From Schmidtea polychroa (Eukaryota), in assembly GCA_044892525.1 (NCBI GenBank), contig CM097887.1:61814001-61878000 (forward strand): a stretch of DNA of 64,000 bases, read 5' to 3'. The translations under genes were made by a program, and so were the position numbers. The notes beneath the pieces were generated by a model. The model was not told where the DNA came from. It ran no database searches and saw only the letters and a program-made list of their open reading frames with translations. Shown here in pieces: positions 350-64,000 of the stretch (positions are counted from its first letter, which is position 1; each line of letters starts with the position of its first letter).

Positions 350-576
350 CGGCGAAACTTCAATGAGTTTCCCCAAATTGCCTCTCAGATAGCCAATGAT
401 TTTAATGCATTAAATGGCTTCTGATTGGCTGCTTTTTCTTCCATTAATAGGTAAGAAATTTTATTTTTTCTTCATATTTTTTAATTCAGGAACAAAATGA
501 GAAAAAGATTATTACTGGAAATCAATGTTCTGGGGGTGCATTCAATTCTAATACGTTTAACAAATTATGCTACTTC

Positions 577-1109
577 TCTGAGAAGCACTCAAAAATTACT
601 TTGGAATCAACTAAGAAAACACGGCGAATTATGTGACGTAGCCTTGATTGTTGGTCAAAAAAAAAATCTTAGCCCATAGAATTGTGTTATCTGCATGTAG
701 TCCTTATTTTAAAGCTATGTTTACTGGCGAATTATCTGAATCACTACAAAATGAAGTAATTAAATATTTGGTTATCTTTATCAAACGATATTAGGTAACA
801 TTAAGGGATATCGATGAAAGTGCTGTTGAAGCATTGGTAGAATTTTGTTATACATCTCAAATTGTTATTGAAGAGTGGAATGTACAGTGTTTACTACCAG
901 CTGCTTGTTTATTACAATTATCAGAAATTCAAGATGTTTGTTGTGAATTTTTTAAAACAGCAGCTTGATCCATCTAATTGCTTAGGTATCCGAGCTTTTG
1001 CTGATACTCATGCTTGTAATGACTTATTAACCATTGCTGATAAATTTACACACCATAATTTTCAAGTACACTTTATTTATTATTACCTCAAGATCGTCCT
1101 CTTATGCAG
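577..1109 (+). pseudogene. KLHL20: Kelch-like 20 / diablo BTB-BACK fragment, frameshifted and internally deleted
   Basis: Joining frames across a 39-bp GT-AG intron gives [142 protein letters not shown], then [12 protein letters not shown] (1074-1109), closely matching KLHL20. Frameshifts near 610 and in the A10 run at 657-666; most of BACK is missing and no Kelch repeats follow. Confidence 0.85.
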
Positions 1110-2183
1110 GTGGATAAATTTTGTGTTAATATAAACTTATATTGATTATTTATTATATTGTGTAAAATAATTTTCAGACTCTTTGATGATTTAACACAAT
1201 AAATTGAAACATTAATTATCGCAATTGTCACTGTATTAACTGGAAATCTATTTCCAACTTAAAATGGAACGCAGAGACATGAATATTGTTGATTTCGAAG
1301 CGAATATGAAACCATGAAGTATGTAGATATTAGCCCCATAGACCACTATGAGTTATATAGATTCCATTTCTGAATTAGGATGAATTTTGTAGATTTTAAT
1401 TGATTTGCACTCGAAAATTTGGTGTTTAAATGGTCACAAAGATCTATTCTCACCACTTCTATGATACAAGATGCTTTCAAGTCATTAACGTATAAATCAA
1501 TCCTAAAAATTATTATATATTTGTATTTAAAATTTCATTGAGATTTTCCAATTTTTTTTTACTGTAACTGCAAACTCAGCCTTCAATAAATCAGGGTAAA
1601 ATAAGTTGAAAACGAATGCGCATTAAGGAACAAATTAGTGATTGCCTTCTGTTATCGTGGGAAAAGAAGTAAGCGCATTCCAATCTGTAAGAGAAGACTA
1701 CGAAAAATGTGGAAAGATCTAGAATAATGATGATTCCAGATAATGAAAAATTTTTGTTGAGTTTTCTGTTCTGGTTATTGCAAATTTTTCTGCAGACAAA
1801 TTAATTTGACAGAGTTTTTATTTGTTATTAAAAATTTATTATGAAATCCTCTTTCTGGCAGCAGGGATTATAAGAGTTTCCTTTTCAAACTCCAGGAGAA
1901 AGAAATTTGAATTTATATATTTCTATTTGGATTTTAGGAAGTAAGTTATTTAATCTTTATTAATTTCTATTTTTAATCATTTGAATAAATATTTTTATCC
2001 AATAAATTAATAATTTTCGTCTATACTCAAATTTTATGCATAGATATAGATAAATAGTTTTGGATAAATATAGATATAGAGACACCGAGATACATAGAGA
2101 AACTTATAAACAAATATAGATTTAGATAAAAATATAGTTCCATTTATTCATAAACGGTTTCAATGGAAAAATCAATGACTACT

Positions 2184-2389: not shown

Positions 2390-3859
2390 TTAGTTCATTT
2401 TAATTTCCAATTGTTTGGTTCCATGCCGATACCGTATTATTGTTTCTTCCCGTTCATAGATTACCCCATCGATGGTTACAGTCTCCCCAACATCAATATT
2501 TGAAGGGTTTTTTCTTTTTCTCGCTTGTCGACATTCGGGCATTGGACCATACTCAAGTGTTGGGTGTATTCTTACCATCGAGACACTTATCATTACTGAA
2601 ACACATTCTTGTGAAATTTCCAAAAACGATTCGGTGGCCCACTTTAATGGAATTAATGGATTTTCAGTCTCCATCTCCACATTCTCCTCGCTTGTCAAGT
2701 CAATTTGTTCTGCTTCCATTACATCGTCAACCGGAATTTGTGCCACTTTCTCCGCTATTGCAGTTGATGCTGATGGTACCTCTCGAAGTTTTTTATATTC
2801 CTCCAACGAATATTTCTTTGATGGTAGGTTTTTGGGCATTGGTATATCATCAATCCATTGATTTTCCACTCGTTGATATACCTTGCGAATGCTCTTCACA
2901 TCCTCTAGAGCCGAATGCACACCGATTTGTGTTTCTTCTCCACATATTTCTCTCACTACCGTTTGTAATTTGAACCATTCTCCTTTCCTGGTTACTCCCA
3001 TGTTCTGAAGTATTGGTGCTGCTGCTAGATCTCGAATGCCGTACAATTGTTCAATCCATATCCCCAAGTATTGTAATTCTGCATGCAAATCATGGCCGAT
3101 CAATATTTTGCCTACTGTCAAGCGTTGTATCTCTTTCATTGCCACATATTGATCACATTGGTTCCTGCTGGCCACTTCTGTAATTCCATGGATCCTTGAA
3201 TTAAAATGTCGGATTTTTCCTCTTGGAGTGAGGTATACATCTTTTACTACTTTCCCATAATAATTCATAATTGCTATTGCTAAAGGGACCATTTTCCCTT
3301 GCTCTGATGTGCCATATTCAGCATCAATGAATAATATTCTACTGCGGATTTCTTCTAGATCCATTTCTTTTCTGAGAAACGACATTTTCCTTTTCAACAT
3401 TTCTTTCGAAATTTTCATTAACATTGGATCTTCTCTTGCACTTGGCTGCATCTGCGGAACTTCGTTCGCTTCATTTTCGATTCTGATTTCCACTACCATG
3501 GTTGTTTCTTCATTCGCTGCTCGTAACAGTCTCCACATGAAGTCTCTGTGCAGCTTCCACGACGTAAATTTTTTAAGTTCCCAACACACTTTGTTGTCAT
3601 TCGTCAGTACCTCAACGGTACCCTTGATCACATGTAGATGATATTCTTCTTTCCTTGACATCTCGACTTCTTCCGCTAATCGCAATTTTGACATCCGCAT
3701 GATCGTAAACATTTGGATCTTCATTTTTCGGTCATCAATTCTTAAATAATTTGGGATTTGGAGATTATCATTTATCCGGTATACTTTTTGTCCGGCATGA
3801 TTGTTCTTCATTTTGATGTAGCTGTCGTAGGTCGACCTTGCAAATTGTATTTGTTCCAT
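2390..3859 (-). CDS. 489-aa protein with a REX4/ISG20-like DEDDh 3'-5' exonuclease domain
   Basis: ExoI FIDAEYG, FNSRIHGIT, ExoII ILIGHDLHAEL, IRDLA, ExoIII HSALEDVKS. Intronless, intact, same strand as the retroelement; C-terminal RKRK basic patch. Confidence 0.85.
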   Translation of the reverse strand: MEQIQFARSTYDSYIKMKNNHAGQKVYRINDNLQIPNYLRIDDRKMKIQMFTIMRMSKLRLAEEVEMSRKEEYHLHVIKGTVEVLTNDNKVCWELKKFTSWKLHRDFMWRLLRAANEETTMVVEIRIENEANEVPQMQPSAREDPMLMKISKEMLKRKMSFLRKEMDLEEIRSRILFIDAEYGTSEQGKMVPLAIAIMNYYGKVVKDVYLTPRGKIRHFNSRIHGITEVASRNQCDQYVAMKEIQRLTVGKILIGHDLHAELQYLGIWIEQLYGIRDLAAAPILQNMGVTRKGEWFKLQTVVREICGEETQIGVHSALEDVKSIRKVYQRVENQWIDDIPMPKNLPSKKYSLEEYKKLREVPSASTAIAEKVAQIPVDDVMEAEQIDLTSEENVEMETENPLIPLKWATESFLEISQECVSVMISVSMVRIHPTLEYGPMPECRQARKRKNPSNIDVGETVTIDGVIYEREETIIRYRHGTKQLEIKMN

Positions 3860-4054
3860 TTTTTTCTACAATAGTTATATAATTAAAATTTGAAGTTAAT
3901 CTAATTTTAACACTAGGGTTGAGATGGGGTACCCAAAGGATACCGTCCCACCAACTAGTTATATAAATAAATAATAATAATTACCGTTTAGTTAATTGTT
4001 GATTTATTTATTTTTTTTTTCAAAATTAATGGAGTTTAATGGAGTTAACCCTCT

Positions 4055-5500: not shown

Positions 5501-5639
5501 ATTGATGTAACTCAATGGAGCAGGGTTTTTTGTAAATTTTTGTTTAATTACTGGGTTCCCTGCATCTTTATTTGGCTTTGATCTCAATGGATAACGTGAT
5601 TCATCTTCTATTATCTTCTTGCATCTATTTACATGAACG

Positions 5640-7558
5640 ATGATTGTCCCAGCCTTTTTATTGTTTTGTGGACGCAATTTTAAGTTAGTCTCTGTCGTAT
5701 CACACACTAGATATGGTCCTTTAAACGGTCGTTGCAATTTCGTTGACAAGCCTTTTGTCGGTTCTGGTTTGTTTATATACACAAGATCTCCAATTTTAAT
5801 GTCATGTGCCCGTGCGCGTTTATCATAGCATTCTTTATACGCTTCTTGATGATGCCTTATGTTAAGTCCAGCTTGGATCCATACTGACTGTAGTCTTTCA
5901 TGCATAGCTATTTTATAATCTGACACATCCATATATTGGGAAATAGGTGACTGAAATTCTAGATCGACTGGCATATTGTTTCGTCGTAGATACATGAGAT
6001 AAAAGGGTGTTTCTCCAGTGCTTTCATTTACTGCATTCCGGTATGCAAATAAGCATGGTTTAATGAATAAATCCCAATCCTTTTGTTTCCTATTTACATA
6101 GGATGATATCATATTAATTAGTGTCCCATTAAATCTTTCAACTAGACCATCTGTTTGTGGATGATATGGTGAGGTACTAAGTTTCAATATACCAAATAAA
6201 TCTGTAATTGATTTAAATAATTCACTCTGAAAATTTGTTCCTTGATCTGTAAGTAATTTCTTTGGTGCTCCGTATCGAAAAATAATATTCTCCACAAATA
6301 TTTTCGCAACTGTTTCTGCTTTCTGATTTGGCATTGCATAAGCTTCTGGCCATTTAGTAAGATAATCGCAAAAAACGATAATGTATTTGTTGCCATTTGT
6401 TGTTTCCGGCAATGGACCAACGATGTCCATTGCTGTCATTTCCATTGGCGCCTTGGGCACTGGCATAGGCTTAAGCGGAACTTTTATTTTCCGTCCCGTA
6501 TTTCGTCTTGTTAGGCATATCTCACACGTATGACACCATTGTCTGACATCTTGTTCCATCGTTTTCCAATAATATTTCTGTTTCAATCTTGATAATGTTT
6601 TTCGCGCTGATAAATGCCCTCCTAATGCTCCATCGTGATACAACAACAGTAATGATTTTCGATGTTTTGTCGGAACAATAATTAACAAATTTTCATTTTG
6701 TACACATTTTAACAAACCATCATGAATAATGTATTTATGGTTCTCTTCGGCAATATGTTTCCAGTCACTCTCCTTTTTGATTGAGACAGCATGTTGACGT
6801 AACTGATTTAATTCCTCGTCATTTTCCTGATCATCTTGTAATTTTTCTATATTATTTACCGTTTTAATTGCCATGAATATTGTATTTTCGCAATTATTTT
6901 CCTCTTGATCAACATTATTTTCTACGGGTATTCTCGACATAGCATCCGCATTTGCATTTGACTTTCCTGTACGATACTTTATCTCGAAATTATATTCTTG
7001 CAACGCAATTGACCACCTAATTAATTTACTGGCCGAATCTCTGTGCTTCATTAGCCATTGTAACGGATTGTGATCCGTAAAGACAACAAATTTTCTGCCC
7101 ACTAGGTATTGTCGAAAAGTGGTTATCCCATATACCAATGCTAACGTTTCTTTTTCGATTGTCGAATAATTTTTTTCATGAGGTTTCAGTGATCTGCTGG
7201 CATAAGCAATTACATGATCTTTTTCCCCTTCTACTTGCTGTCCTAATACCGCGCCTAATGCGAAATTACTGGCATCTGTCATTAATATAAACGGTTTTTT
7301 AAAGTTCGGACATCTTAATATCGGCTGTTTTATTAAGCTTTCTTTGAGTTTATCAAACGCTTCTTGCTGAGCTGTTGTCCATTTAAATTTTGCTTGCTTT
7401 TTCAATAACATGTTCAAAGGTTGTGCGACATGTGAGAAACTTTTAATAAACTTTCTGTAATAACTAGCTAATCCCAGAAATTGTCGAACCTGATCTACAT
7501 CCTTGGGAATAGGATATTCCTTAATTTTCATTACATTTTCTGGATTTGGTTGCAAACC
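5640..7558 (-). CDS. pol: pol: RT connection, RNase H and integrase
   Basis: RNase H LMTDASNFALGAVL / EKETLA / FTDHNPL / ADAMSR; integrase zinc finger GGHLS...WCHTCEIC, catalytic MDIVGP / LTDQGTNF / GLVERFN, and GPY motif FKGPYLV. Confidence 0.95.
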
Positions 7559-8500
7559 TCAACGCGAAATGATATGACCCACATAAACTACTTCAGATTT
7601 TCCCCATTCACATTTGGAGGGTTTTATTTTTAAGTTTTCTTCTAACAATCGCTTGAATACTGTTTCCACATCCTGCAAATGTTCCTGAAAACTATTCGAA
7701 AATATTATTATATCGTCAATATACACTAATGCATGTGGTATATCGCGCAAAACGAAATTCATACCTCTCTGAAATGTAGCAGGCGCTCCTGTTAATCCGA
7801 ATGGTAACACGTTAAACTCATATAGACCCTTCCCATCTGAAAATGCAGTTTTCCTTCTGTCTTCCTCTTTGACTTTAAATTGATTGTATCCTTTATTAAG
7901 ATCTATTACCGTAAAATATTGCACCTCCCCCATCTGATCGAACATTTCCTGTGGAACAGGAATAGGATATGTATCTTTTCTCGTAACTTGGTTCAATTTT
8001 CGATAGTCGACACAAAATCTTAAATCACCGTCCTTCTTTTTAACTACTACTATTGATGATGAGAATGGTGAGGAACTATCTCTTATTATATTGAATTCTT
8101 TCATTGCTTTGATTTGCCGATCACTTTCTTCCTGATGTATGTATGGTATTCTATACGGCCGTAATTTTATTGGGGTTTCGTTGAGTAATGGTATTTCATG
8201 CTCAATCACCTGAGTGAGTCCCAGATCATACTCATGTTTTGCAAATACATTTCTATATTTCTTTAATAATGCACCGAATTCTTGTTTTTGCAAATCCGTC
8301 AAATCTTTGCTTGTGATCTGAGGTTCTTTATAAATTTTTATATTTCTCGGTAACTTCTGAGCTTCCTCTGATTTGATTTTTGTTAATTTTCCCAATTTGG
8401 TTTTGGGCTTTATTTCAACGGATCTTGCACTATAATTCGCTATTCTAACTGGTACTGACTTATTTTGGACTTTCACTACTTCATCACACATAGGCACATC
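7559..8500 (-). pseudogene. pol: pol: reverse transcriptase bounded by two premature in-frame stops
   Basis: LRFCVDYRKLN, IDLNKGYNQ, LPFGLTGAPATFQ, VYIDDIIIFS. TAA at 8501-8503 and TGA at 7559-7561 interrupt one continuous frame shared with the protease and RH-IN segments. Confidence 0.95.
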
Positions 8501-9020
8501 TTATTTTTCAACCAGCTTTTGATTTGGCTCAAATATGTACTCCTCATCTGAGACCCTCATAACATCTGCATAGTATATTACTTCGCTTTTTGGTGGTACT
8601 TCCAATGTTTGGTTTAGAAATACCTCTCCTACTTCAGGCACTACTTCACCCATTTGTCCTTTTATTAGTTTTCCAGTTCTCAGATCAAGAGAGATTCCAT
8701 CTAGTTGCTCCATGACATCCATGCCAATAAGACATTTTACAGGACTTTTTCTCATCACGGATACCCAATGAATTATTTCTTGATCTCCAATTATCAGTTT
8801 AACTTCTAATTTTCCAACAATATTTAGTGCATTATGTGACATTGATTTAATAATGTGATTCGTTGGTTTTATTTTGGCTTTCTCCTGATACGTCAAGAAG
8901 CTTTCCGCTACTATAGTATGACTTGAGCCTGAGTCTAATAAAGCTTCCACTTTTCTTTTGTTAAACTGTATGTTTATTCGAGGTTGTTTTCCTCCTACTA
9001 CTGTTGTCATTAGTGCATAG
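8501..9020 (-). CDS. pol: Retropepsin (aspartic protease) and linker
   Basis: VEALLDSGSSHTIV and CLIGMDVM motifs, in frame downstream of the glycoprotein TM and cytoplasmic tail. Confidence 0.9.
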
Positions 9021-9399
9021 CTGCATGGTAAACCAAGCATATTCTTTCTTTCAATTTCCGCACTCGTTGGTTCAATCTTCTTTAATTCTATTGTGATATT
9101 ATCGACCGATTTCATCTCCTTTAGTTTTTCACTTGGATATACTGGTGCTGTTGGTCTAAATGTCGGGGTGTACCATCTACTAAGAGTATCAATCCCGCTT
9201 AATTTTGGCATTGGTTCAAGCAAGAACCTGGACTCTGGCTCTACTTTACTCTTTATTACACTTTTTCGAAAGTATTTATGCTCCGATTCCCCGTTGTTGT
9301 TATCATCATTATGATCGTCGTTTTTATCTTCCGACTGACACGTCGATTCCTCACTTTTCCGGCCATTTCTTAATTGTGCCCTTACTCTTGCCATTTCTT

Positions 9400-11203
9400 T
9401 AAATTGATGATCTGTAATAAAGAATCTTGCCAACAATGGAATACAACCAATAACTAATTTCCATGACCATCCCGATATTACGTATATTCGATGTACTGAC
9501 AACATTTGCGACACTACCACCTTTGCCGTTATCATAATCACGTAAATTCCAATTAAACCTGCACATGCTTGTCCCAAAAACATGAACTTGCCCAAATCTT
9601 TTCCATCGTTTTATACGTAGCTCGTTTGAAATGATCAGGTGTTAGCAAATTTTCGTAATTTACTGTTCCTTCTCCATTCGGTAATACTGTGTCAATCATT
9701 TCTGAAATTATCCGTTCCTTTTTGGATGGAAACAACAAATTCCTTTGAGCTTCTTCGATATCTTCGCTTGCATACAAGCCCATTTGTGCCATTTTGTTTA
9801 GTGATGTGAAATTTATCAGGTATTCTAAATTTGTTAATTCTAGTTTGTCTGGAGTCTTGACCCCACGATAGTCTGGTAAGGCTATCCATGAGTCGGTAGC
9901 TAATCGGTATAAAGGGGCTAATAATCAATTGCATTGCAAAAGTTTTGGTTTAGTTTGTTCATCAAGCAAGATTCTTGTTATCGGTTCCATAAATCGTACC
10001 TTTCCCCCAAAGCTTACTGGTAATTCGTTCGTACATTTTTCGTATTTGGCAATTTTCACTGTGACTTCTTTGCATTTTTAACTGTATAATGCTTCTCCAA
10101 ATATTCTCGCAAACACTCCATTTTCTGATATTAGCATAGGTGCTACTAAATTTGGATTCGTAATTGCCATCACCATCCGATTTCGGAGAATCTCTTTATT
10201 CAACTTACAATCGTTCAGAATCATTTCTCTATATACATTTTCCATGATGTTTTGACTAAAATGAAACAAATAATCAATTTTATTATTAAAATAATGAGTA
10301 AGTTTAATGTCATCTCTATGAATTTTTATTTTTGCTTCTTCCACAACATTTCTAGACACGTAAACACCTTTATAATTTGTTACATATACCATTCGACCAC
10401 ATTTATTTGTGATTTCCTTTTTTATAAATCGCATTCCATCTGCTGGTAACGTAGACATTAAAACTGTTCCCATTTGCTTTGTCCATACTGGGGTTGATTT
10501 AATGGTATTATTTGGTCTATAATTCATATTGAAATTATCTGGTTTATCTCTAAACTGTTCTCCTACTAGTTCTTTAAAGTTCATAGTTTTTAAGTGCGCT
10601 AAATTACACTTATTTGTTTCTACATTATAAACAAGAATCGATTCCCCTGTTTGACAATGTGTTTGTTTCATATTACAGAATGGATGAGTTTGTAATTTTC
10701 CCGTATCATCATCGAACTCCTTCGAACTCTCTCAACTCCGTGAGATACTCTTCTAGCACCACTGTTTGCTGAATAATTTTACCGTTCATTTTATATGGTT
10801 CACCTTCACAGTCGCCATTTGCTTTCATAACTCCCTTTACAATTATTGTTTCTCGTATTCTATGGTTCAATTTTGCCTTTAAACGAATTTCTGGACTTAT
10901 TTTTAATTCTCCTGTTTGAAATGCTGCTAGACAGTTTTCTGGAAGCACCTCGACTGGCCTAGGTATCGCATGCATTTTTATGAGTGACGTATGGCTCCAT
11001 TTACCACAATAAAATACAAATGTTGTATGTTTGACAATACACTCTCTCACTTGAGTTCTTCGCAGATCAGACTCCTGATACACATAATATTTTACGTCAT
11101 TTTCTATTTTTAAACTGCTCGGATACGCACCTGGGCACTCCGACATATCTACTACCGAATAAACTTTTCCCATTTCAGTTTGGGAACAATCGTACGCAAC
11201 TAA
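9400..11203 (-). pseudogene. env: Chuvirus-like (class III, gB-like) envelope glycoprotein located between gag and protease
   Basis: Begins LVAYDC after a signal peptide; Cys-rich; contains FNNKIDYL, NPNLVAPML..GVFARIFGEALYS*KC.EV.V...CTNELPV...FMEPITRI, GLYA...LLFPSKKE and a hydrophobic C-terminus FLGQACAGLIGIYVIM...GWSWKL. Lesions: frameshift near 10715, TAA 10078-10080, TGA 9925-9927, frameshift near 9592. Confidence 0.75.
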
Positions 11204-13207
11204 AGATGATGTCTGTGTAATTATTGCACAAAACGTAATCACCATAAACATCGCCCATGGAAATATCATAGTTTTTCTTAGTTCTGGCTTAACTCTTTCA
11301 TTTACTCGTCTTTGGGGTGGACTCATTTCTTGCTTCTCATTTTTCTTTTCTGTTAGAGATGAACACAGTGTTTTCCAACCACCTTTTTTGTTTACCCAGC
11401 TCATTAAATATTCGTTTACTAGCCGGGCAGCGATGTCTATCAAATTTTCTAACTTGTCTGACCTTGCGAACGTATGCGTTCCAATTTCTAAAACAACATA
11501 AGTTAAAGCTATTATTATAACCTCCTTATTAATTTCATTTTTTGCCAAATTTTCAATTACTGATCTCTCGCAAAATGTATTCTCTTCGCCAAATTTCTGC
11601 ATCACTTCAGGAAGCCTATTCTTCATCTCTTTAACTATTTCTTTCAGTTCATCATCTACTTCTACTTCTATGTCGAACATTGGATATACTGCTTTAACGA
11701 GATGTTTCAACATTTTCTTAGTTTCGTCGACGTCCTGTTCTAGCCTCACTAAATATTTCTTTATTTCATATAAAGTTCTAACTTTCTTATTTTTGATTTC
11801 ACCATTTATCTCGCCTTCAGGTACAAGTGACTCTCCTTGTACGTCTGGTTCTGTGGACTGATTTTTGTTATCAGGATCTTTTTGCTCATTATCACTAACG
11901 ATTTCATCAATTTCTTTATTTCCCTTAACTTTTTCATCTTGTTCCTCTGTGTCAGGCTTGTTAGACTCAATATTTACTTCTAAACTCACTCCTTTTACTA
12001 CGACTATATGGTTCACTAAATATCCCACTCGTCCATCTCGGATCAAATATCCGTTTTCATCCAGCTCTTGTGGTACACACTCACAATCATATAGGTATTC
12101 ATCATCGTCAAGTTCTTCACCTTTGTACATTACTATAATAATTCCATCTTTTCCCAGCGTTTCAGCCGCTCTCTTCCGCAATTTTCGGACCTTTGCACAC
12201 CAATGCTCGTCTACATATTCCGTTTTGCCATATCCCTCATAATCTAATGCTATCAAAAATGGCTTTAACTCTACTCTTGCCTTTCTGAGCTCCTTGCCCA
12301 ATCTTTGCAATAAACTTCTTAATAACTTGGCATATCTGGTTTTCACATGTAAATATGGTCGTATTGTATTCACTATTTTTAGTTTATCGTTGTCCTCCAT
12401 TTCTAATTTCTCAATAATCTGTAACTTCTCATCGATTTCATCTTCATCTCCAATATATAACGCATCATTTAATTCCTCTAATATCTCCCTTGAATTCCTT
12501 TTGTCTATTATTTTACTATTTATTATTTCATCACTAGTAATTACATTTTCCATTTTTAATTCATTTGTACTTCCTGGAATAAATCCACAATCTACCAAAA
12601 ATTCGTCATTTTCTAACAATCTCTCATTAAATCTCAACTCTATCATGCATCCTTCCTTTTTTTCTTTTAATTTCTTCTTTAAATCATTTACACAATCATT
12701 TGCCTCACAACGACAACATAATACACTTTTATCAATCTCGTTTACTACTTCCACCAAGATGGAATCTAAGCCTGTTTTCTCTCTCAAAGCTTTTCCAAAT
12801 ATTTTCATTAATTCTTTAATTTCTTCTTTATACTTTGGATTCATATTATAGTAGTTAACGCACAAGCTAATTACACTTTTTATCTTTCTCATACTCAAAG
12901 ATATTTGACTTAATTCTCTCAACGATTTGATCACTTTAGCCGACTCTATTTCATTATTTCCAATTAGTTTTTCGATTCTGGTCATTATCATTGTTGCTTT
13001 TTCACTTTCTAAGTCATCTTTTATAACTCTCCTTTTCGACTCTTTTTCGTTCAATTCCTCTTGCGACTCATACATCATGTGATTATTGTAGTCCTCTTCT
13101 GATTCAAACTTTGACATCAATCGATCCAAACGTCGACCCATTTCTCTCACTTCGTTTTCAATTCTTTCATTAAAATTATCTGGCTGAATAAAAGCTACAT
13201 TATCCAT
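11204..13207 (-). CDS. Cargo region of ORF2: two helical + ubiquitin-like modules, coiled coil, Bcl-2-like domain, TM/signal peptide
   Basis: UBL-like segments at aa 148-220 and 316-380; BH2-like LMSWVNKKGGWKTLC; hydrophobic MIFPWAMFMVITFCAIITQTSS. Open and in frame with the glycoprotein N-terminus. Confidence 0.65.
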
Positions 13208-14436
13208 CTGCGCCTTTGGAATTTATCCATATTTCTTGGACATGATCTAGCCATGTGTCCATAACTTCTGCATGAATGACATTGAATTTGTCCTTGTAGA
13301 TTTACTTTATCTCTCTGCGGTGATGGTGATGTTGATGTTGATCTTGACCTGGCAAAACAATTTCGTGACACATGCCCTTTTCTTCCGCAATTAAAGCATT
13401 GTAAGTTATCATTAGTTCTCTGCTCATTAATGTTCGCTTTAGTGAAACTTTTCGCACCATTTCCTTTTAACCAATCAGGCCACATTTGCCTTGGACTCCG
13501 TTGTACATTATTTTTGGACCAGCATTGATTGCTGTCATGTCCCATTCTTTGGCAATTATCACACTGAATCGGAATTGGGCTTCTCTGTACTCTATTTTTA
13601 AACCAGCATTGGTTAACATGGTGTCCAATCCTTTGGCAATGACTACCTTGGATGGGACCTTCCTTTCCATCTATTTGAATATCTGTTGACTTGTTCGACT
13701 CAAATTTGGATCTAAATTTTGGTGATGGACTACTTGTTTGTTGAAAACGATTGTTTCTAATTGGGGTTACTGATCTTTCGCTTGCGCCTGAGATGACTGC
13801 AAACGACTCTGATTTTGACTGTGTGCTTTTTAAATTTAGCTCAATTTTCATTGCCTTTTTGATCAATTCATCAAAGTCATTAAAATCAACATAGCATAAA
13901 GCCTTTTTAATTTCTTTCTTTACTCCTGACAAGAATTGATCCTGCAATAATTCTTTTACCTGCTTTGCCATCTCGGCCTGTTCTGGTTTCACTTCGAACG
14001 CTTTCTCTGCAAGAGTTGATAAATGATAAGAAAACTCACTTACCGATTCCTCTGGCTTTTGTACGCGGTTATAGAATTTCTGTCGCATTATCCGTTTGAT
14101 ATCCACTAGGATTAATTTCGTGGCTAACGCGTCTTTCAACTTGGTCCAGTCATTTGCTACTATTCTTTTATCAATTTGTTGCCACGCTTCTCTGGCTGCT
14201 CCTTTTAGGTATAGCGGTAATCTTTGCACCATTATCGATTGGCTCCATCCATAGGCCGTCGCATACATATAGTAATCTGCCATAAAATCGACAAATTCCA
14301 GCGGATCTCCACCGTACTGATCCACAGGTAGTTTTTGACAACTCGCATAATCATTGCCTTCCTTGCCGTTGCCCACCGTGGACACAGGTGTTTCGTCGTT
14401 GTTATTTGTATTATTGGTTAGTCTTTGGGTACTCAT
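13195..14436 (-). CDS. gag: Gag (retrotransposon capsid domain plus CCHC zinc knuckles)
   Basis: First ATG at 14436. YGGDPLEF..F, RLPLYLKGAAREAW, QKPEESVSEF, QFLSGV; three intact CX2CX4HX4C knuckles and one degenerate. Confidence 0.9.
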   Translation of the reverse strand: MSTQRLTNNTNNNDETPVSTVGNGKEGNDYASCQKLPVDQYGGDPLEFVDFMADYYMYATAYGWSQSIMVQRLPLYLKGAAREAWQQIDKRIVANDWTKLKDALATKLILVDIKRIMRQKFYNRVQKPEESVSEFSYHLSTLAEKAFEVKPEQAEMAKQVKELLQDQFLSGVKKEIKKALCYVDFNDFDELIKKAMKIELNLKSTQSKSESFAVISGASERSVTPIRNNRFQQTSSPSPKFRSKFESNKSTDIQIDGKEGPIQGSHCQRIGHHVNQCWFKNRVQRSPIPIQCDNCQRMGHDSNQCWSKNNVQRSPRQMWPDWLKGNGAKSFTKANINEQRTNDNLQCFNCGRKGHVSRNCFARSRSTSTSPSPQRDKVNLQGQIQCHSCRSYGHMARSCPRNMDKFQRRRWIM

Positions 14437-14808: not shown

Positions 14809-14826
14809 ATCACGTCGGGCTCACCA
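14809..14826 (-). promoter_or_regulatory. Primer-binding site complementary to the tRNA-Trp 3' end
   Basis: Minus strand TGGTGAGCCCGACGTGAT, 4 nt after the LTR end CA; 17/18 match to the animal tRNA-Trp(CCA) terminus ATCACGTCGGGGTCACCA. Confidence 0.85.
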
Positions 14827-14830
14827 AATA

Positions 14831-15729
14831 TGTTGGGTTTTTAATGCAAGTCGGTACTACGGTCTGACTCCTTTGTGTTCTTTTCCAAATAAATAAATAA
14901 ATAAATAACCCAACACAAAATCTTTATTGACACTGATGCAATTACACTTTTACACTTGTATTAGTTTACTCACACTTGATACAATCAGGTTTTGTCTGCA
15001 CTTTTCAATTTATTAACAAATCTCACGCAGGGGTAGATCTTCCAACGGGAGATGTCCCTTTCTGGTACGTTCGATTTTTAAATGGTTTAATTTCTACTAA
15101 CTTTAATATTTCCCTTTTCGCTCTCTTCAAACTTCTATTTTCTTTTCTTCGACCAACTGGCATTTTGTTTTCTTGCCAGTTGCTTTTATACTCGTTTAAT
15201 AATTGACTTTATTTTTGCCAATTATCTTTGGTCCTATTTCCCCCCGGGCTTCCTCTTGGAGATCTAATTTAATTGAATGGAATTTGTTTGACGGCGCTTT
15301 TTACTTTTTATCCGGCTAAATTAATTGCCTTCCCAAAATTAGATTTCTCCGGCTAAATTAATTGCCTTCCCGAAATTGGATTTCTCAATTCGCTCGGGTT
15401 TTCCATTGTATCGGGTTTCCCATTAGCTCGGGTTCTCCATTAGCTCGGGTTTCCCATTAGCTCGGGTTTTCCATTAGTTAATTAATTTTTAATTAATTTT
15501 TGTTTTTTGTAATTTATTCCTTTTAGGGACCCCCCATTGATTTTATTTTATTATAGCTGAACTCGTCTCATTATTTCGCATCCGCCCATACCAGTTTCCC
15601 CCAGAAAATATTCATTTTTTAAAATTTTTGATTTTTAATTAATATTTTGTACTTTAAATTTTTATTCTGAATTTGGTGTTTTTGTCAATTTTCACCTCAT
15701 TTTTGTGCCTCCCTTGTTGAACCCCAACA
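14831..15729 (-). repeat. 5' LTR (899 bp)
   Basis: Terminal inverted repeat TGTTGGG...CCCAACA. U3 has a 37-bp tandem pair (15311-15384) and about five 17-bp ctcgggtttcccattag units (about 15390-15476); minus-strand TATAAAA near 15184-15190 and AATAAA near 15009-15014. Confidence 0.8.
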
Positions 15730-28903: not shown

Positions 28904-29434
28904 TTATTCAAAATATAAACCATAGACCGTCACAACTGAATATATTGAACATCCATCAAAGATGGCTTCTGCGACATTGTCTCCTGTCTCTGGATACCAA
29001 AGAGATCGGCTGGCGAAATTGACATTTGCCGTTGATTTATCACCAATTGAAACAATACAAATTAATTTATAACGATTATAACATAACTCCTTTACCATTT
29101 GTTTTATTTCCACAGCTAACTTTTTACAGAGTTCAGGGATTTCAACCCGGTCATATTGGACTCCCGCTAGTCGTTTTTGTAATAATTCAGCTATGCGCGG
29201 TTCAACTTTCTTCAAAATAAATTTATTTTTATTATCCGGCATTATTCGATATGTATTCTCATAAACATCGGGAACAAGATTCGATTTCGTTATCAGAGGA
29301 TACAGACTAAATCTTTTTGAATATATCGTAGATCGTCGCCGTTTCATAATTGATCCACGGCGATCTGTTGGATTCGAGATTGATTTCGACAGATCACCAT
29401 TTACAATACTCATTCTTTTCATTTCCGAATCCAT
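28904..29434 (-). CDS. Tctex1-domain dynein light chain (TCTEX1D/DYNLT type)
   Basis: YENTYRIMP...YDRVEIPELCKKLAVEIKQMVKELCYNRYKLICIVSIG...ASRSLW..GDNVA...VYGLYFE. Confidence 0.9.
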   Translation of the reverse strand: MDSEMKRMSIVNGDLSKSISNPTDRRGSIMKRRRSTIYSKRFSLYPLITKSNLVPDVYENTYRIMPDNKNKFILKKVEPRIAELLQKRLAGVQYDRVEIPELCKKLAVEIKQMVKELCYNRYKLICIVSIGDKSTANVNFASRSLWYPETGDNVAEAIFDGCSIYSVVTVYGLYFE

Positions 29435-29705
29435 TCTAGAACCACTAAAATATATCTATGAAATGTCAAATTCAGAATAATGAAGATTTTGTATCAAAAT
29501 AAAGTGACAGTTTGCCGTTTTGATATTTGCACTTATTGAATGGATACTCAGTAAACTTAAATTAGTCATATTTTTTCAGTTGGACAAAATATTATTCTAA
29601 TACTGATTTCATTATTTACTAATTATAAATTCTCAGTAGTGATCTTGAGTAAGTTCTTGCCCGGGGTTTCATTTTGCTTGTTTTAGTCTTTGTCATCTCA
29701 GTTAA

Positions 29706-34182: not shown

Positions 34183-34780
34183 GTATTAACTTGTTACTAT
34201 TGTTAATGGACAGGACGAGTATAATTTATTGAAATTAAATTTTGTATTTTATTTCGTTAATTAACAAATAATATATTCACAACTCTCAACAAAATTCAAT
34301 GACTCTTAATTAATTAATATTTCATTTCTTAAAAATTAATTTTACTAATTACGAAAATATTAAAATTTCTACTTAAGATTTGCTTAATAAAACAATTTAA
34401 TCGACTATAAATTATTAATTTCTTTACAATTGACTGAAGAAAAATTCTTCTATTTAGGCATGCACTGGAAAAAATAATAGAGAAAATTCTTCCACAATGT
34501 CCATTCTATATAAACAGTATCCATGGTTACAAAAAGGTCTAATAAACAAACAATTACATAGTCAATTTATTCACAGAGGCTGACGCTATCTGGTGGCATT
34601 GTTGAAAATTTCCCACCATTCATTACTGGTAAATCAAATAGGACAAAACTAAACACACTGAACAAAAAGAAATCTTGTTAGGTATTTTATTTTGTTTTAA
34701 TTGAATTTTGTTTTTCAGTAGAATTTAGAGAAGAAACAATTCTATAATAAATATTGTGGCATAGTTTCCGCAACGGCACC

Positions 34781-35332
34781 ATGTCAATTGAAAACAAACG
34801 AACAAGCATTATTGAGTTTGAAATTCCAAAACCGATTTCTAATAATCTTGACAGACGTCAGTCAATTATCCGAGGCCGTCGTGGAACACTGGTTAATATT
34901 CAGAAATCTCGGGGAAGTATTTGGAGTATGCAAAATCCTGGTAAAAAGTCTTTACTATCTCTTCCGATTCAATACGAGAACACTTATAGAATAATGCCAG
35001 AAAATCATGAAAAATTCACGATGAAAACGATTCGACAGATTATTCAAGATGTTTTAAGCGATTGTCTGTCTGGTGTGAAATACGACGGAAAAGTTGTTCC
35101 AGACCTAAGCAAACTGATTGCTGACCGAATCAAGAGACTCGTTCGAGATTTGTGTTACAATAGATTTAAATTAGTTTGCATCGTCTTCATCGGTGATAAA
35201 TCTGGTGCAAATGTTTGCATTGCAAGTCGATGTCTATGGAATACAGAAAATGGAGACGACGTTGCCCAAGCCAGCTTTGATGGGGGATCAATCTTTGCAA
35301 TAGGAACTGTATTTGGATTGTACTTTGAGTAA
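34781..35332 (+). CDS. Second Tctex1-domain dynein light chain (183 aa)
   Basis: ATG at 34781; YENTYRIMP...YDGKVVPDLSKLIADRIKRLVRDLCYNRFKLVCIVFIG...ASRCLW..GDDVA...VFGLYFE. Confidence 0.9.
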   Translation: MSIENKRTSIIEFEIPKPISNNLDRRQSIIRGRRGTLVNIQKSRGSIWSMQNPGKKSLLSLPIQYENTYRIMPENHEKFTMKTIRQIIQDVLSDCLSGVKYDGKVVPDLSKLIADRIKRLVRDLCYNRFKLVCIVFIGDKSGANVCIASRCLWNTENGDDVAQASFDGGSIFAIGTVFGLYFE

Positions 35333-42482: not shown

Positions 42483-45400
42483 TCATCGAAAATAATCATG
42501 TCCAAAATAATTATCATCTGCTGGATCATGGAAATCATCTGTATCATCTGCTGAGATAGCTTCCGTTGAATCTATAAATATATCGGTGTCACCGCCCCTA
42601 TAATGGCCATATGCCAAACTTTGATTTTTATCCACCCAATTTCGCTTATCATCTCTACATGTCAAGGCTCTTTTATTATTTTTAATACTAAAAAGTTGGT
42701 GATTTTTTGACGTTATTCTAAACTGAGGGACTGTGTATATTTTATCATTTAAATAACAATCTAGATACGTCTGATGTGTTAGTCCAGTATCTTTCATACT
42801 TATCCCCTTAGCCTTCATACTTTCCTCATCACCCATCAAACTGTAACATTTAGGTCTCAAGAACACCCAATCTTTATATAATAACCCTTTATTCTCGTCT
42901 TTGAATTTACCAATGACAGAATCAAGGTTCCTACTATATAAAGGATGATTTGGGTCATAATTCGAAGTATCTAATAATTGATCTCTATCATCGCAGGTAA
43001 AAGAATGTCAAGACTACAATGTTTAATTTCCAAGAAGAAGGAATCTGTGTCTCCAGCAACGATATTAATTTCGCAGTTGAATTCGTCGCGATATTTTTGC
43101 AACTCTTCATACTGCAGCTGGTACATCCTGAGTTTGGATAAATCAAGTACGGTTTGACCAATGTAACTAGGTCTATTCAAACACACTATGTCCTTCCTCA
43201 ATAAAACCGAAATCAAGTCATCATCGATTTTCGTGGATTTACGAAAAGTCGGTTTCGAACAGAATGTTAATAATCTCTGTGAAGAATTACACAGACGTAA
43301 ATTAATACGTTTTTTAAGATTTTCAACAGTCTTGCCGTAAAGACTGTTGTTTAATAACTTATAAAAATTTTTATCGAGTTTATTTGTCGACGCTGCTCGT
43401 AACGCCGTATTTGTGTTAATATAATTTTTGAAAATTTTATCTTGTTTAAATTTAATTGCTCTATGTGTTTTTGATATTTTAACACCTAATTTAATAAATA
43501 TTTGTAGAAGCCTCCAATGAAGAACATAGTTCCTCTTGGGGCTGTGTGTAAGCAACAGCTTCTCTATTTTCGAACCCGGTACACACATCTTTTCAGCGGC
43601 AACGGGAAGATCGTCCAATTTGTCGTGAATTGACGTCGGTATTTCTAAATCCACTTCTATGGTATAACCATAATCAAGCAGATCTAAATCTACCGTTGTG
43701 CATTCAACAATTATATTATTTAATAAATTATCATCAGTAACCCATTCAAAGTCACTGCAAGGTAATGGTTGACTTAAAGCCCAACCGTATAAATTATTTA
43801 TATCTATGTAAAGCAAAGCGGTATCCGGGTCTGTTTTTACATAATGTTTATTTACAAAAGTTAGTCCGCCACGGATACCGCCCTCGAAAAAGTTATACAT
43901 CTCCATATCGGTGAGGAGCTCAATTGGAGAGTTTAAAGTTAATAAGGCTGAATTCCAAGACATACCTGGAATCCCTAAGAAATTTAATGGCTCTAGTCGG
44001 TTATGAGCAATGGACTTAGCTCTAAATTGCTGGAAAAAATCGACTAAAAGGAAAACATCAAGTTTTAAATAAACCATCATGTAATCGAAAAGTGAAGTAC
44101 ATGAAGTTTCAACCCAAATTCGCTGAGCTGTCTCATATTCAGCGGGAGTCACATCTTTCCAAATAGGAGGTAACTGACGAGTGTTATGTAAAACCTCTAA
44201 TGAAGTTGCGGCATCATAAGGAAAAATCCCCTTTGCAGTTATTATTGTACCCTGAAATTCTGATTCGGTCAAGGGTAAAGATGATAAAGTTTTGACAGCA
44301 TTATTTAAAGACTCGCTGACAAATTGATAAGAGTCTATAAATTTAACAGTTAATGAGTCAATCCTAGCAAAAAGACTAAGGAATTTCTCGCTGGTTAAAG
44401 GAATACAACTAATATTCCATGAATGATATTTTGAAAGGCTAAATTTCAAGATATGATGCAGATCATAACCCTTTAAATTATGAAATACTACAGGAAGGGT
44501 ATGTCTAATTTGCCTCGACAGATTACAAGTTGTACAAGCGGCACCGAGATATAGACCGGTAAAATGATCATGGTCCCTAACTGGACTAACTAAAGGCTTA
44601 TTGCACAAATAGCATGATGTGCGGTTTTCAAACATTAATTGTTGCTCATCTGTAATTATCATTTTCTTTTGATAATTTTTATAATAATAAGGAGTTACAA
44701 TATATTTCCCTATCATTTCAATTTCAGTAAGAAATTGATCGACACAATCTAAACCGGTGAACGACTTATAAATTTTTACGCCCGTAAAATTAATAATAAA
44801 AAGCATACCGGCAGAAATAGGCAGATGACGTTGAAAGTAGCGAGTGTCTTTAGGTAAGATAGCCTCAAAGTCAGCGTAAATAACAAAGGGAGGAGTGACT
44901 GTTTTACTCCAATCAGTAAATTCTAAATATTTATTTTTAAGCAATGTGTACAAGGTAGTACCAAGCTGATTTTTATCGCAAAGACCCTTATGTCTATTAA
45001 AAGCGTCATCATTTCTAAAACCGTTTAAACATCTAGGGCACCACTGACTACAAATCCTAACAGGAGTGATTGAACTATTCCTACAATTAAGGAATCTATT
45101 TAGGTCTGTGATTCCAAGATAATGATAATTATCATTCTTTTCAATTAATAATAAATTGATAGGTATGGCTCCTACTATCTTACTCCTGTATATTATATCA
45201 ATAAAGGGATGTTTCATAACTGCATCTTCATCGGAAATGTCAATCAAAGCCTTTTCGTTATAAGTAAGAACATTTATACTATAACCTGGATTTTGTTGTT
45301 CAAATTTACTTATATTTGATAGTTTCATCGGCATATCATTAGGATCAAATTTAATTTCAGAAAGATTGTATGAATTAGGGCGATTTCTATATTGCCTATT

Positions 45401-46183
45401 TATACTATCATATTTAATAATTGACAAGAAACTATACAAAAAACAGAAGTGGTCATTATTAACTACATTAACGAGACAGCTTAAGTTTCTTAAAGATTTT
45501 GGGGTTTCAATAAAACTTCTACCACTTAACCGACTTATTTCAGCAAATTTAGTCAGAACAAAGCTTATGTATTCTATTTTATTGATAGTCCAATTACTAC
45601 CTTTCTCATTAATTTTAATTATTTTTTCATTTAAACGAGCAATACCTTCGTCAATGAATGTATCGCTCCAAACTCGGGCGGAATTCGAGATTACAAAAGA
45701 TTGTAACTCATCATCTTTTATAAATTCCACCTTTAGACAAAATTGAATTTTACATGATTTTAATTTATTTACATATAATTTTAATTTATTTATTAAAATG
45801 TCTGGTACAGAGACCGTTTTTAAATATAAAGACGAAACGTCCATTTTTAATATAATATGATTATTATTTAAATCACTGGTGACATCTACGACACCATAAC
45901 CTATTTGATTAATATTATTATAATTATTATTATTACCATTATTATAATAAATATTACTACTACTATTATTATTATCAATTTCATCATCACTTAGTGTAAT
46001 TACATCAATAACTTTAGATTTTTTACTTGGTATTGAATTTATTTTTTCATTATTTTTTCTTTTATTCATATTAATTAGATTATTTATTTGATCATTTAAT
46101 TTATTTACTTGATCTTTTAGTTTAGTTATTTCGTTTATATCATTATTATTGGTGTTGTTAGTATTATTATTATTGGTGTTGTT
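42483..46183 (-). CDS. Protein-primed-type family B DNA polymerase (Polinton/adintovirus-like) with an endonuclease VII insertion; one frameshift near 42985
   Basis: ExoI YADFEA, ExoII HNLKGYD, ExoIII YLKLDVFLL, pol A YIDINNLYG, pol B KLLNNSLYGKT, pol C AGDTDS, then GKFKDE / KCY / KAKG in the shifted frame (ORF 42483-42866). The frame stays open upstream of ATG 46069 into the N gap. Confidence 0.92.
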
Positions 46184-48026
46184 ANNNNNNNNNNNNNNNN
46201 NNNNNNNNNNNNNNNNNNNNNNNNNNNNNNNNNNNNNNNNNNNNNNNNNNNNNNNNNNNNNNNNNNNNNNNNNNNNNNNNNNNNNNNNNNNNNNNNNNNN
46301 NNNNNNNNNNNNNNNNNNNNNNNNNNNNNNNNNNNNNNNNNNNNNNNNNNNNNNNNNNNNNNNNNNNNNNNNTAAGCTATAGAAAAGAGACTTCTTAGAA
46401 GGTTTAAATTGTTGGAGATGGAGTCTATGCTTATTATAAAATTCCTTATACGTTATAACTTCAATAACCTCACATTTAGGGCATAGGATGTATTAACCTG
46501 AAAAGAAAGGAATTAGATTGCGATGTTTGACCGGAGTTGGCAGTATTTAAGGAAAGTTAGATCTATTCAGGTTTGCCGATAATGGACGAAAGAAATAGGC
46601 AAGAAGCAATCGTTTTACTCGCAAGGATAAATGTGATTGAAACGCAATCTATCTGACTGGTTAAAATACAGTTAAAACATTTTAAAAAATAAACACAAAG
46701 TTTCAGAATTCGTTTTTATAAAGTTTTTATTTTTTAAATTTAAAATAATTTTTTTATTTTAATTGACATTTTGAATACTTTATATTTATTTATTCATATG
46801 AATTTTATGCGGCCTCTTACATAATTATATTAGCTTTCAATATGATTGGATAATATTAATAATAAACAACAATTATTTTTTTCTGTATTTTCCATTAAAA
46901 TGATTATACCGCCATATAAGCAATTATTTATGTTCGATGAAAGCTTTAATTATAAAACAATTATAATTCTAATTCTTTTTATATAAAATTTATTAATAAT
47001 AATCTCTAAATTTTATTTTAGAGAAGATATTGACAAAATATTTTTATTCATTCCAAAATTAAATATTATCTTTTTTTATTTTTCATCGTTGTTATTAATA
47101 CGATTTAGTAAAAATTAACTAAATATTTCTGATCTCAGGATTTGTTCTTTGATGCCACATTAGGTTTTATATTTTTATCATAGACATTCATTTTCAACAA
47201 ATTGTTTAATTTTTTTTTTGAATTTTTCATTCTGTTCTTTTTATTTTTTAAATGATTTATTATTATTATTATTCCCTTATTATTATAAGAACTTTTTTTT
47301 CAAATTTTACCACTGATTTCTTTTTCATTGTATTTATTATAAAGCTTGAATCAATAAATATATCGATGTTTTTGATATTTTCAAATTTTCGGCAAAATTC
47401 AAAAACATCGATATATTTACTGATTCATAGTCTTCAAGATTTTTAATAAATTTACTATTTTTAATAAATTATTATTTGTAAAATATATTCTTTTTAAAAA
47501 CTAAAATCTTAGTAATACATGTTTTATGAAATTATATTTTTTACATATTATAATTATATTTTTTACCTTTCTAAATATTCCCCCAAAGCGAAATAGTTAA
47601 ACAAGTGAGTAAAGTTTGGGATCAATATTAATTTATCGTCCAAATAATCAAAATAATAAAATAAAGAATAATTAAACTACTTAAACTAGCGGTTAACTCC
47701 TAATAGTATCACCAGACCTAATAGTATCATTTTATCAATAATTTTTAGTGATATTATTTTAATATAATCACCATTTTAACACGTTCACTGCCACGTATAA
47801 CATATGTTATACGGGTATGTTCCCTTAGGCGCCAGTATAACACATGTTTTATACGTTCAAATTTTCATATGCACTCCGTTTAACAACAGTGTCAACGCTC
47901 TATGGATATTTCTATGCACTTATATATCGTGGCGCATGTGGGTAAGTTAAAAAAAACTCTGTGGCGTGCTCGGGATGAAAATAAACTTGTCATTTATATT
48001 TGAATGTTTATTAAAATGCAGATATA

Positions 48027-62439: not shown

Positions 62440-64000
62440 GATTCGAATCGAATTATTGAACAGCAAATGAATCACCTCCCATATAATGCCCATATGGATA
62501 ACTTTTATTTTTCCACACCCAAACCCTTTAATCATCTGTGTTGGCAAGTGCAGTTTTTTCATTTTTTATTGTGAATAGTTGATGATTTTTGCTAGTTATT
62601 TTAGTTTGCGGTATAGAAAAAATTTGATTAGTGTTATAACAAACCAGGTACGCTTGATGTTTTATGTCACTACCTTTCAGTGTTACTCCTTTAGCTTTTT
62701 TAGTCTCGTCATCACCAAACAAACTATAACATTTATGTCTAAGAAAAATCCACTCCTTATATTTAAGACCTTTATTCTCGTCTTTGAACTTCCCAATGAC
62801 CGAATCAAGGTTCCTACTGTATAATGGATGACAATGGTCATAATTAGATGCGTCTAGTAAATTATCTCGGATTATTGACGGCAAATGAACATCAAGCTTA
62901 CAATTAATTACTTCAAGGAAAAAAGAATCCGTATCACCTGCAACGATATTAATTTTACAGTTGAATTCGTTACGATAATTTTGTAACTCTTCATACTGCA
63001 GCTGATACATTCTAAGTTTCGATAAGTCCAGTACAGTTTGACCAATGTAACTAAGTCTATCTAAACAAATAGTTTCCTTATTTAGCAAGACTGATACTAA
63101 GTCATTGTCAATTTTATAAGTCCTTTTAAACGTTGGTTTAGATGTATATGTAATTAGCCTAAAAGCCGAATTACATAGCCGCAAATTCAGATGTTTTTTT
63201 CAGATTCTCTACGGTCTTGCCGTAAAGACTATTATTTAATAACTTATAATAATTTTTATCCAAGGCATTACTCGATCCGCCCTATTGGTATTGGTATCGA
63301 TGTAATCTATAAAAATATCATCGTTTTCGAATTTAATTGCCCTATCTAGATAAATTAATTTTACACCAAGAGAAAGAAAAAGCTTGAGAAGTCTCCAATG
63401 AAGAACATAGTTCTTTTAAGGATGATGTGTAAGCATCAAATTCTCAACTTTAGAGGCAGATGGACACATCTTTTCAGCGGCAACTGGAAAATCATCCAAT
63501 TTGTCGTGAATCGAATAAGGAATTTCCAAATCAACCTCCAAGGTAAATCCAAATGGAAGTACTTCCAAATCTGCAGATTCACAAAAATAAATTATTTTAT
63601 TTAACTCGTCTCTAATGGTTACCCATTTAAAATCCTTATACGGAAGTTTTTGGCTTAAGGCCCACCCATATAACTTATTTATATCAATGTAAAGAATTTT
63701 TGTATTGTCGGAGGATACTACATGGTGTTTCTTAACAAGTGTTTATTCACCACTTATCCCCTTTCGAAAAAATTATACATCTCCATATCTTGCAACAGCT
63801 CGATAGGAGATTTCAAAGTCATTAAAACGGAACCCCAGCCCGTGCCTGGAATTCCCAAGAAATTAAGATGTTCAAGTCGATTATGTGCAATAGATTTTGA
63901 ACGAAATTGTTGAAAATAGTCAGCTAATAAGAACACATCCAATTTAAGATATAACATCATGTAATCAAACAATTATTCACAATGAAATTCTTTCCATATA
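62440..64000 (-). pseudogene. Second, diverged and decayed PolB copy, truncated by the window end
   Basis: YLKLDVFLLADYFQQFRSK, YIDINKLYG, NSLYGKT, VAGDTDS, GKFKDE, KAKG; several frameshifts and stops, e.g. DD*RVW where copy 1 has DDKRNW. Confidence 0.92.

Follow-up and report, generated by a model that had tools for sequence, protein, structure and literature searches.

Arkhipova and Yushenova (2019, PMC6431247) described planarian Burro elements with an in-frame env between BCL2 and the protease. According to the available part of that account, the Burro1/GYPSM1 polyprotein comprises gag with CCHC, ubiquitin-like and BCL2-like domains, an env with matches to mononegavirus glycoproteins, protease (PR), reverse transcriptase (RT), RNase H (RH) and integrase (IN); the element exceeds 30 kb and has a 4,873-aa ORF, MATH, ankyrin and BIR. 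Chary and Hayashi, in the available part of PMC13524379, reported gB-type GAG-ENV-POL elements from Nematoda, Bryozoa and Platyhelminthes, six of them from Schmidtea mediterranea. Among BEL/Pao elements, Anakin of mosquitoes is stated in the available text to carry a chuvirus glycoprotein (PMC7642597; cited in PMC12440569 and PMC13524379).

We analysed a stretch of 64,000 nucleotides from contig CM097887.1 of Schmidtea polychroa (the window), which contains most of a Ty3/gypsy element of approximately 17.6 kb in total on the minus strand (Table 1). Our main reading, to which we give a probability of roughly 80%, is that the window holds a damaged, compact Burro-type (GAG-ENV-POL) element, in whose intact sister copies one frame codes for gag, a Bcl-2-like leader, a predicted class III fusogen and pol, with the parts likely cut after synthesis and the env inherited. 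The element has the TG...CA termini and the primer-binding site of Ty3/gypsy LTR elements, and its 4-bp target-site duplication is within their 4-6 bp range; the primer-binding site is, we presume, tRNA-Trp-like. An ARAGORN scan of the 64-kb window found no tRNA. A Pfam profile search confirmed the domain order PR-RT-RH-IN, and the spacer between protease and RT resembles the PR-RT region of a Burro1-like family of the same genome. Identity with Troyka was considered and rejected: CG...CG termini, a 3-bp target-site duplication and no env are expected there, and the window element differs.

Table 1. Features of the element (window coordinates) and the evidence for each.
Feature	Position	Strand	Evidence or remark
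5' LTR (TG...CA)	14831..15729	-	896-column alignment against the 3' LTR
3' LTR	outside the window, ~940-1840 bases before base 1 (L041:4159-5057)		99.89% identical to the 5' LTR
Primer-binding site	14810..14826	-	read from the sequence; identical site in 8/8 sister copies
gag: capsid-like region and four CCHC knuckle motifs	13198..14436	-	frame broken near 13211 here
Leader	11650..13222	-	weak ubiquitin-like match at ~12733-12566 (Pfam ubiquitin, E 0.0075, below cut-off)
Bcl-2-like domain with BH2-like W-x4-GGW motif	11375..11647	-	Pfam Bcl-2, E 0.0085, whole profile, below cut-off
env internal signal sequence	11197..11269	-	hydrophobic stretch; predicted cleavage before A/YDC
Class III fusion glycoprotein ectodomain	9590..11196	-	PF24664, sister-copy model, Foldseek; broken near 10716, 10079, 9926 and 9593
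PF24664 pieces	13222-10709; 10731-10078; 9924-9553; 9610-8504	-	E 2.5e-23; 7.6e-15; 1.6e-12; 5.1e-8
env transmembrane helix (9586-9512) and weaker second hydrophobic segment (~9484-9413, likely amphipathic)	9413..9586	-
Hydrophilic env-protease linker	8990..9412	-	stop-free
Aspartic protease, LLDSGS	8699..8989	-	D at 8935; Pfam RVP, E 7.3e-7
Spacer, RT, RNase H, integrase	5550..8698	-	stops near 8502 and 7560 in the window copy
Second signal-like stretch, ectodomain and transmembrane segment	4298..5520	-	C-terminal end of the polyprotein frame
Separate 3' ORF, DEDD-type exonuclease-like domain	2390..3865	-	Pfam RNase_T, E 0.013, cut-off not reached
BTB-BACK (kelch-like) host gene fragment	385..1332	+	antisense in the 3' region of the element; Pfam matches

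Two other pairs of features were seen in the window. The stretches 42486-46492 (minus strand) and 62472-63969 are related (71% identical), with an endonuclease VII match (E 6.8e-5) and what we take to be a family-B DNA polymerase-like motif; they are probably Polinton/Maverick-like elements. Two similar ORFs in inverted orientation (28907-29455, minus strand, and 34751-35329, plus strand) presumably resemble Tctex1-type dynein light chains.

The window copy carries seven disabling breaks: frameshifts near 13211, 10716 and 9593, and stops near 10079, 9926, 8502 and 7560. The break near 9593 is the only one found elsewhere, at 2 of 29 other loci, which does not suffice to establish a damaged lineage. 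As the LTRs are near-identical yet seven breaks are present, the window copy likely arose from a damaged template with help in trans, or some of the breaks are assembly errors. The window copy cannot make the env protein itself and was likely copied with the aid of intact sisters.

The frame 9610-8501 runs stop-free through both the env transmembrane helix and the LDSGS protease, as the initial annotation had stated; the tail running to the protease is approximately 140 aa long counted from the second hydrophobic segment and approximately 175 aa from the end of the transmembrane helix. Given the seven breaks, this fusion of env and protease could be thought an accident of decay in the window copy, by loss of a stop or by a deletion. 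The genome of the species (781 Mb, four large contigs) was searched with the piece from transmembrane helix to protease, and the best 131 of 3,923 candidates were scored (96-100% identical). The junction was stop-free in 121 of these best 131, which is the outcome of the sister-copy check that the initial annotation had proposed, and distant relatives in other assemblies have env and protease within one protein. An accident of decay is refuted by these data and retains practically no probability.

Sister copies are approximately 98% identical to the window element. A stop-free frame of 3,437 codons surrounds about 21 of the 131 scored matches (counted by eye); among ten fetched copies, nine have an uninterrupted frame spanning gag to RNase H in the 5' stretch, and in seven a single frame stays open across both overlapping stretches. 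Intact copies are over-represented in these counts, because only the best 131 of 3,923 candidates were scored and nine of the ten fetched copies were picked for long frames. The single 3,437-codon frame holds gag, leader, Bcl-2-like domain, env, pol and second membrane protein. Since such frames are open in sister copies, a single ORF covers gag, env and pol, and the junction between env and protease is no artefact. The co-translation of Env and Pol suggested by the initial annotation thus holds for the sister copies, but not for the broken window copy, and the inclusion of gag in the same ORF had been missed. Target-site duplications of 4 bp were present in seven of the eight sister copies examined, and the LTR pairs of six sister copies were 96-99.9% identical; the family is young, abundant and retrovirus-like in the planarian genome. 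Among the sisters, one (L038:1-4179) has a deletion by which the C-terminus of the polyprotein and the end of the exonuclease-like ORF have become one continuous frame, and in another (L028:4208-10000) the region of this ORF is present as tandem repeats.

The start of env had been annotated as a signal peptide followed by YDC. A hydrophobic signal-like stretch is indeed followed by A/YDC (Y at 11194, minus strand), but it is internal, as approximately 650 aa of in-frame leader precede it. Four consecutive pieces of the window copy matched PF24664 (Monjiviricetes_fusion) above the curated cut-off and in the order of the profile (Table 1), and a natural sister env matched nearly the entire profile (E 1.5e-89). 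The sister ectodomain, modelled from a 125-sequence alignment, gave a pLDDT of 91.4, a pTM of 0.71 and a 48-residue central helix, while the fold obtained from the single sequence was of low confidence (pLDDT 32). In PDB searches, the single env sequence gave centrin-like chance matches only, and the env profile gave weak gB matches (E 0.017). With Foldseek, all listed PDB rows for the model were herpesvirus gB (best E 5.9e-15, TM 0.45), while the best viral models were chu-like glycoproteins (E 9e-38, TM up to 0.71), with glycoproteins of xinmo- and qin-related viruses scoring just behind. The predicted model has the long central helix and conserved disulfides of a gB/G-like fold, and the conserved cysteines are retained. 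By this model the env ectodomain is predicted with confidence to be a class III fusogen, nearest to chu-like virus G and herpesvirus gB; a chuvirus-like glycoprotein between gag and protease, as originally proposed, is thereby borne out. The ectodomain contains only two N-glycosylation sequons and lacks a furin-type site. Each of the 18 embedded relatives shown has a hydrophobic stretch just before (A/G)(Y/F)DC, one strong transmembrane helix and a weaker second segment, by a topology assignment that is a simple hydrophobicity sum; the conserved second segment could span the membrane.

Next, we consider the origin of env. The original proposal was an independent capture, here taken as a recent gain of a chuvirus glycoprotein by the window family. 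In favour of this, the nearest free relatives are chu-like glycoproteins, and GAG-ENV-POL elements across phyla are not monophyletic in pol, according to the available part of PMC13524379. Against it, env is only 22-29% identical to free viral glycoproteins, compared with 26-44% to embedded relatives in other assemblies and 68-81% to those of the same genome, where at least two families are closer to it (68% and 81% in env). The genome also harbours a family fitting the published description of Burro1, with a frame of approximately 4,800 codons, MATH, ankyrin and BIR-RING; its parts follow the same order, and its env, at the corresponding place, is 33% identical to that of the window family and its RT 50%. 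The glycoprotein phylogeny that the initial annotation had called for was built with FastTree from 129 envs and midpoint-rooted, with 37 of the 166 matches left out for short coverage. It placed 21 embedded envs and one short unplaced protein in a single branch (SH 99), where the window family env sits with 20 further embedded envs, the Burro1-like one among them; two members labelled as embedded (P0001 and P0017) have available sequence without pol. The RT and env trees of 11 env-bearing elements show no supported conflict. One env branch and agreeing RT and env trees suggest a single old capture that the Burro-like clade received from its common ancestor, and make an independent capture very improbable and largely refuted. 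The embedded envs branch on their own in the midpoint-rooted tree; of ten free matches looked up, two bear a source name, and besides chu-like glycoproteins, the xinmo- and qin-related ones also rank high. Chuviruses are a candidate donor, and the direction of capture is tentative. As side observations, five relatives (P0007, P0009, P0011, P0013 and P0019) have two to four aspartic-protease domains, some of them after the integrase, and the 3' accessory ORFs of the Burro1-like family (L064:5751-9666) encode a TRAF zinc finger with MATH, a BIR-RING and a weak KH-like ORF.

A comparison of the ectodomain between two families gave dN 0.10 against a dS of approximately 2.8, a value near saturation. 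For these two families, with dS near saturation, omega was approximately 0.04 in the ectodomain, 0.09 in the protease and 0.22-0.26 in the leader and Bcl-2-like parts. These substitution rates indicate that the ectodomain is under strong purifying selection, as strict as that on the protease or stricter. Env might nevertheless no longer serve spread from cell to cell and persist as a membrane scaffold for assembly within the cell, or because breaks in it would cut off pol. A single ORF does disfavour stops in env whatever its role, but the omega of the ectodomain, at or below that of the protease and far below that of the leader and Bcl-2-like parts, together with the conservation of the cysteines, argues against such explanations, which we consider unlikely.

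The domains flanking env are less well defined. The ubiquitin-like and Bcl-2-like matches, both below the Pfam cut-off, sit at the places expected from Burro. All 60 PDB matches shown for the Bcl-2-like region belong to the Bcl-2 family, all of them weak (E 0.11 or worse), and the GGW of this domain is kept in four of four families. The second membrane protein at the C-terminus is 37-53% identical in two related families and matched no Pfam family. In the 3' region, 8 of 10 sister stretches keep the exonuclease-like ORF open (496-530 codons). No such ORF was found in the stretches fetched for the two most closely related families and the Burro1-like one. The BTB-BACK fragment is made of exon-like pieces (Pfam BTB E 5.5e-10 and 1.2e-8, BACK E 0.0063); DNA matching it is present in 7 of 10 sister 3' stretches, and it is likely captured host DNA.

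The layout of the intact copies suggests how such a polyprotein might be processed. The cytosolic Gag-leader-Bcl-2 part would be synthesised first. The internal signal would then thread the ectodomain into the ER, signal peptidase would cut before A/YDC, and the spent signal would leave the Gag-leader-Bcl-2 part anchored in the membrane; as the env signal is internal, Gag is likely membrane-anchored too. The env transmembrane helix would halt transfer, with protease, RT, RNase H and integrase remaining cytosolic. Because the hydrophobicity sum gives env one strong transmembrane helix, the protease would lie on the cytosolic side and be tethered to env, in agreement with the membrane-tethered Pol of the initial annotation. 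The Pol parts would stay tethered to the env tail until released by the element's own protease, and the Gag parts would likewise be freed. A second signal after the integrase would lead to the second membrane protein. Env trimers would let particles bud at membranes, fuse with them and reach other cells. Flaviviruses offer a processing analogue, in which a single polyprotein is threaded through the ER, and by this analogy we infer that flavivirus-like processing of env, Gag and Pol is the simplest reading. A literature search found no paper spelling out such processing for elements of this kind.

A one-to-one output of Gag, Env and Pol is unusual for retroelements, so splicing or recoding may be used. 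Within the single ORF, a spliced or internally initiated message could be the main source of env, with Gag-Pol skipping env and Pol untethered. Other gypsy envs use spliced messages, and a Met precedes the env signal in the window family; against this, several relatives (e.g. P0004 and P0007) lack a Met just before the signal, and the linker is in frame even across very distant relatives, which makes this explanation quite unlikely. Returning to flavivirus-like processing, its furthest extension would make these elements infectious planarian retroviruses in which Gag and a Bcl-2-like anti-death protein are both held in the membrane by the env signal, Pol forms a loop between two different surface glycoproteins and the ratio of products is set without frameshift or splicing. 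We put this forward tentatively, as possible though doubtful.

The position of env inside the polyprotein, which the initial annotation thought perhaps undescribed, is genuine, but planarian Burro elements were already reported to have it (available parts of PMC6431247 and PMC13524379), and the window element adds little as a discovery for this reason. Like Jingchuvirales/Monjiviricetes G and herpesvirus gB, its env matches PF24664 and has the predicted fold; unlike them, its signal is internal rather than N-terminal, and its tail runs into pol. With Anakin it shares the class of fusion glycoprotein on an LTR retroelement, but Anakin, as far as the available text describes it, is BEL/Pao, whereas the window family is Ty3/gypsy and has env inside the polyprotein. 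Like Smed_errantivirus_1 and _2, which are HSV/gB-type errantiviruses in the available part of PMC13524379, the window family is GAG-ENV-POL, multi-copy and LTR-flanked with a gB-type env. Its env domains I-II are approximately 79% identical to those of Smed_errantivirus_1 (52 differences in 251, by eye), and a 3,334-codon sister family of the same genome matches Smed_errantivirus_2 at approximately 98% (by eye). The window family is not among the six representatives listed in that part of the paper, and the words 'polyprotein', 'in-frame' and 'exonuclease' are absent from its main text. The family is new or at least uncatalogued, and Grohme 2018 or Lee 2026 may already name it.

As in Burro1/GYPSM1, one gag-env-pol polyprotein has env between the BCL2-like domain and PR. 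Unlike it, the window family is 17.6 kb long with 3,437 codons, and MATH, ankyrin and BIR were not found with Pfam; the available part of the Burro1 account (PMC6431247) mentions neither an exonuclease-like 3' ORF nor a membrane protein at the C-terminus. The window family therefore differs from Burro1/GYPSM1 proper while sharing env and RT ancestry with the Burro1-like family; this separation is from the published description of Burro1 alone. The window family offers the Burro design in a compact, young and high-copy form, within a tractable animal, and these properties make particle formation, cell-to-cell movement and polyprotein processing easier to study in it than in the 30-kb Burro1.
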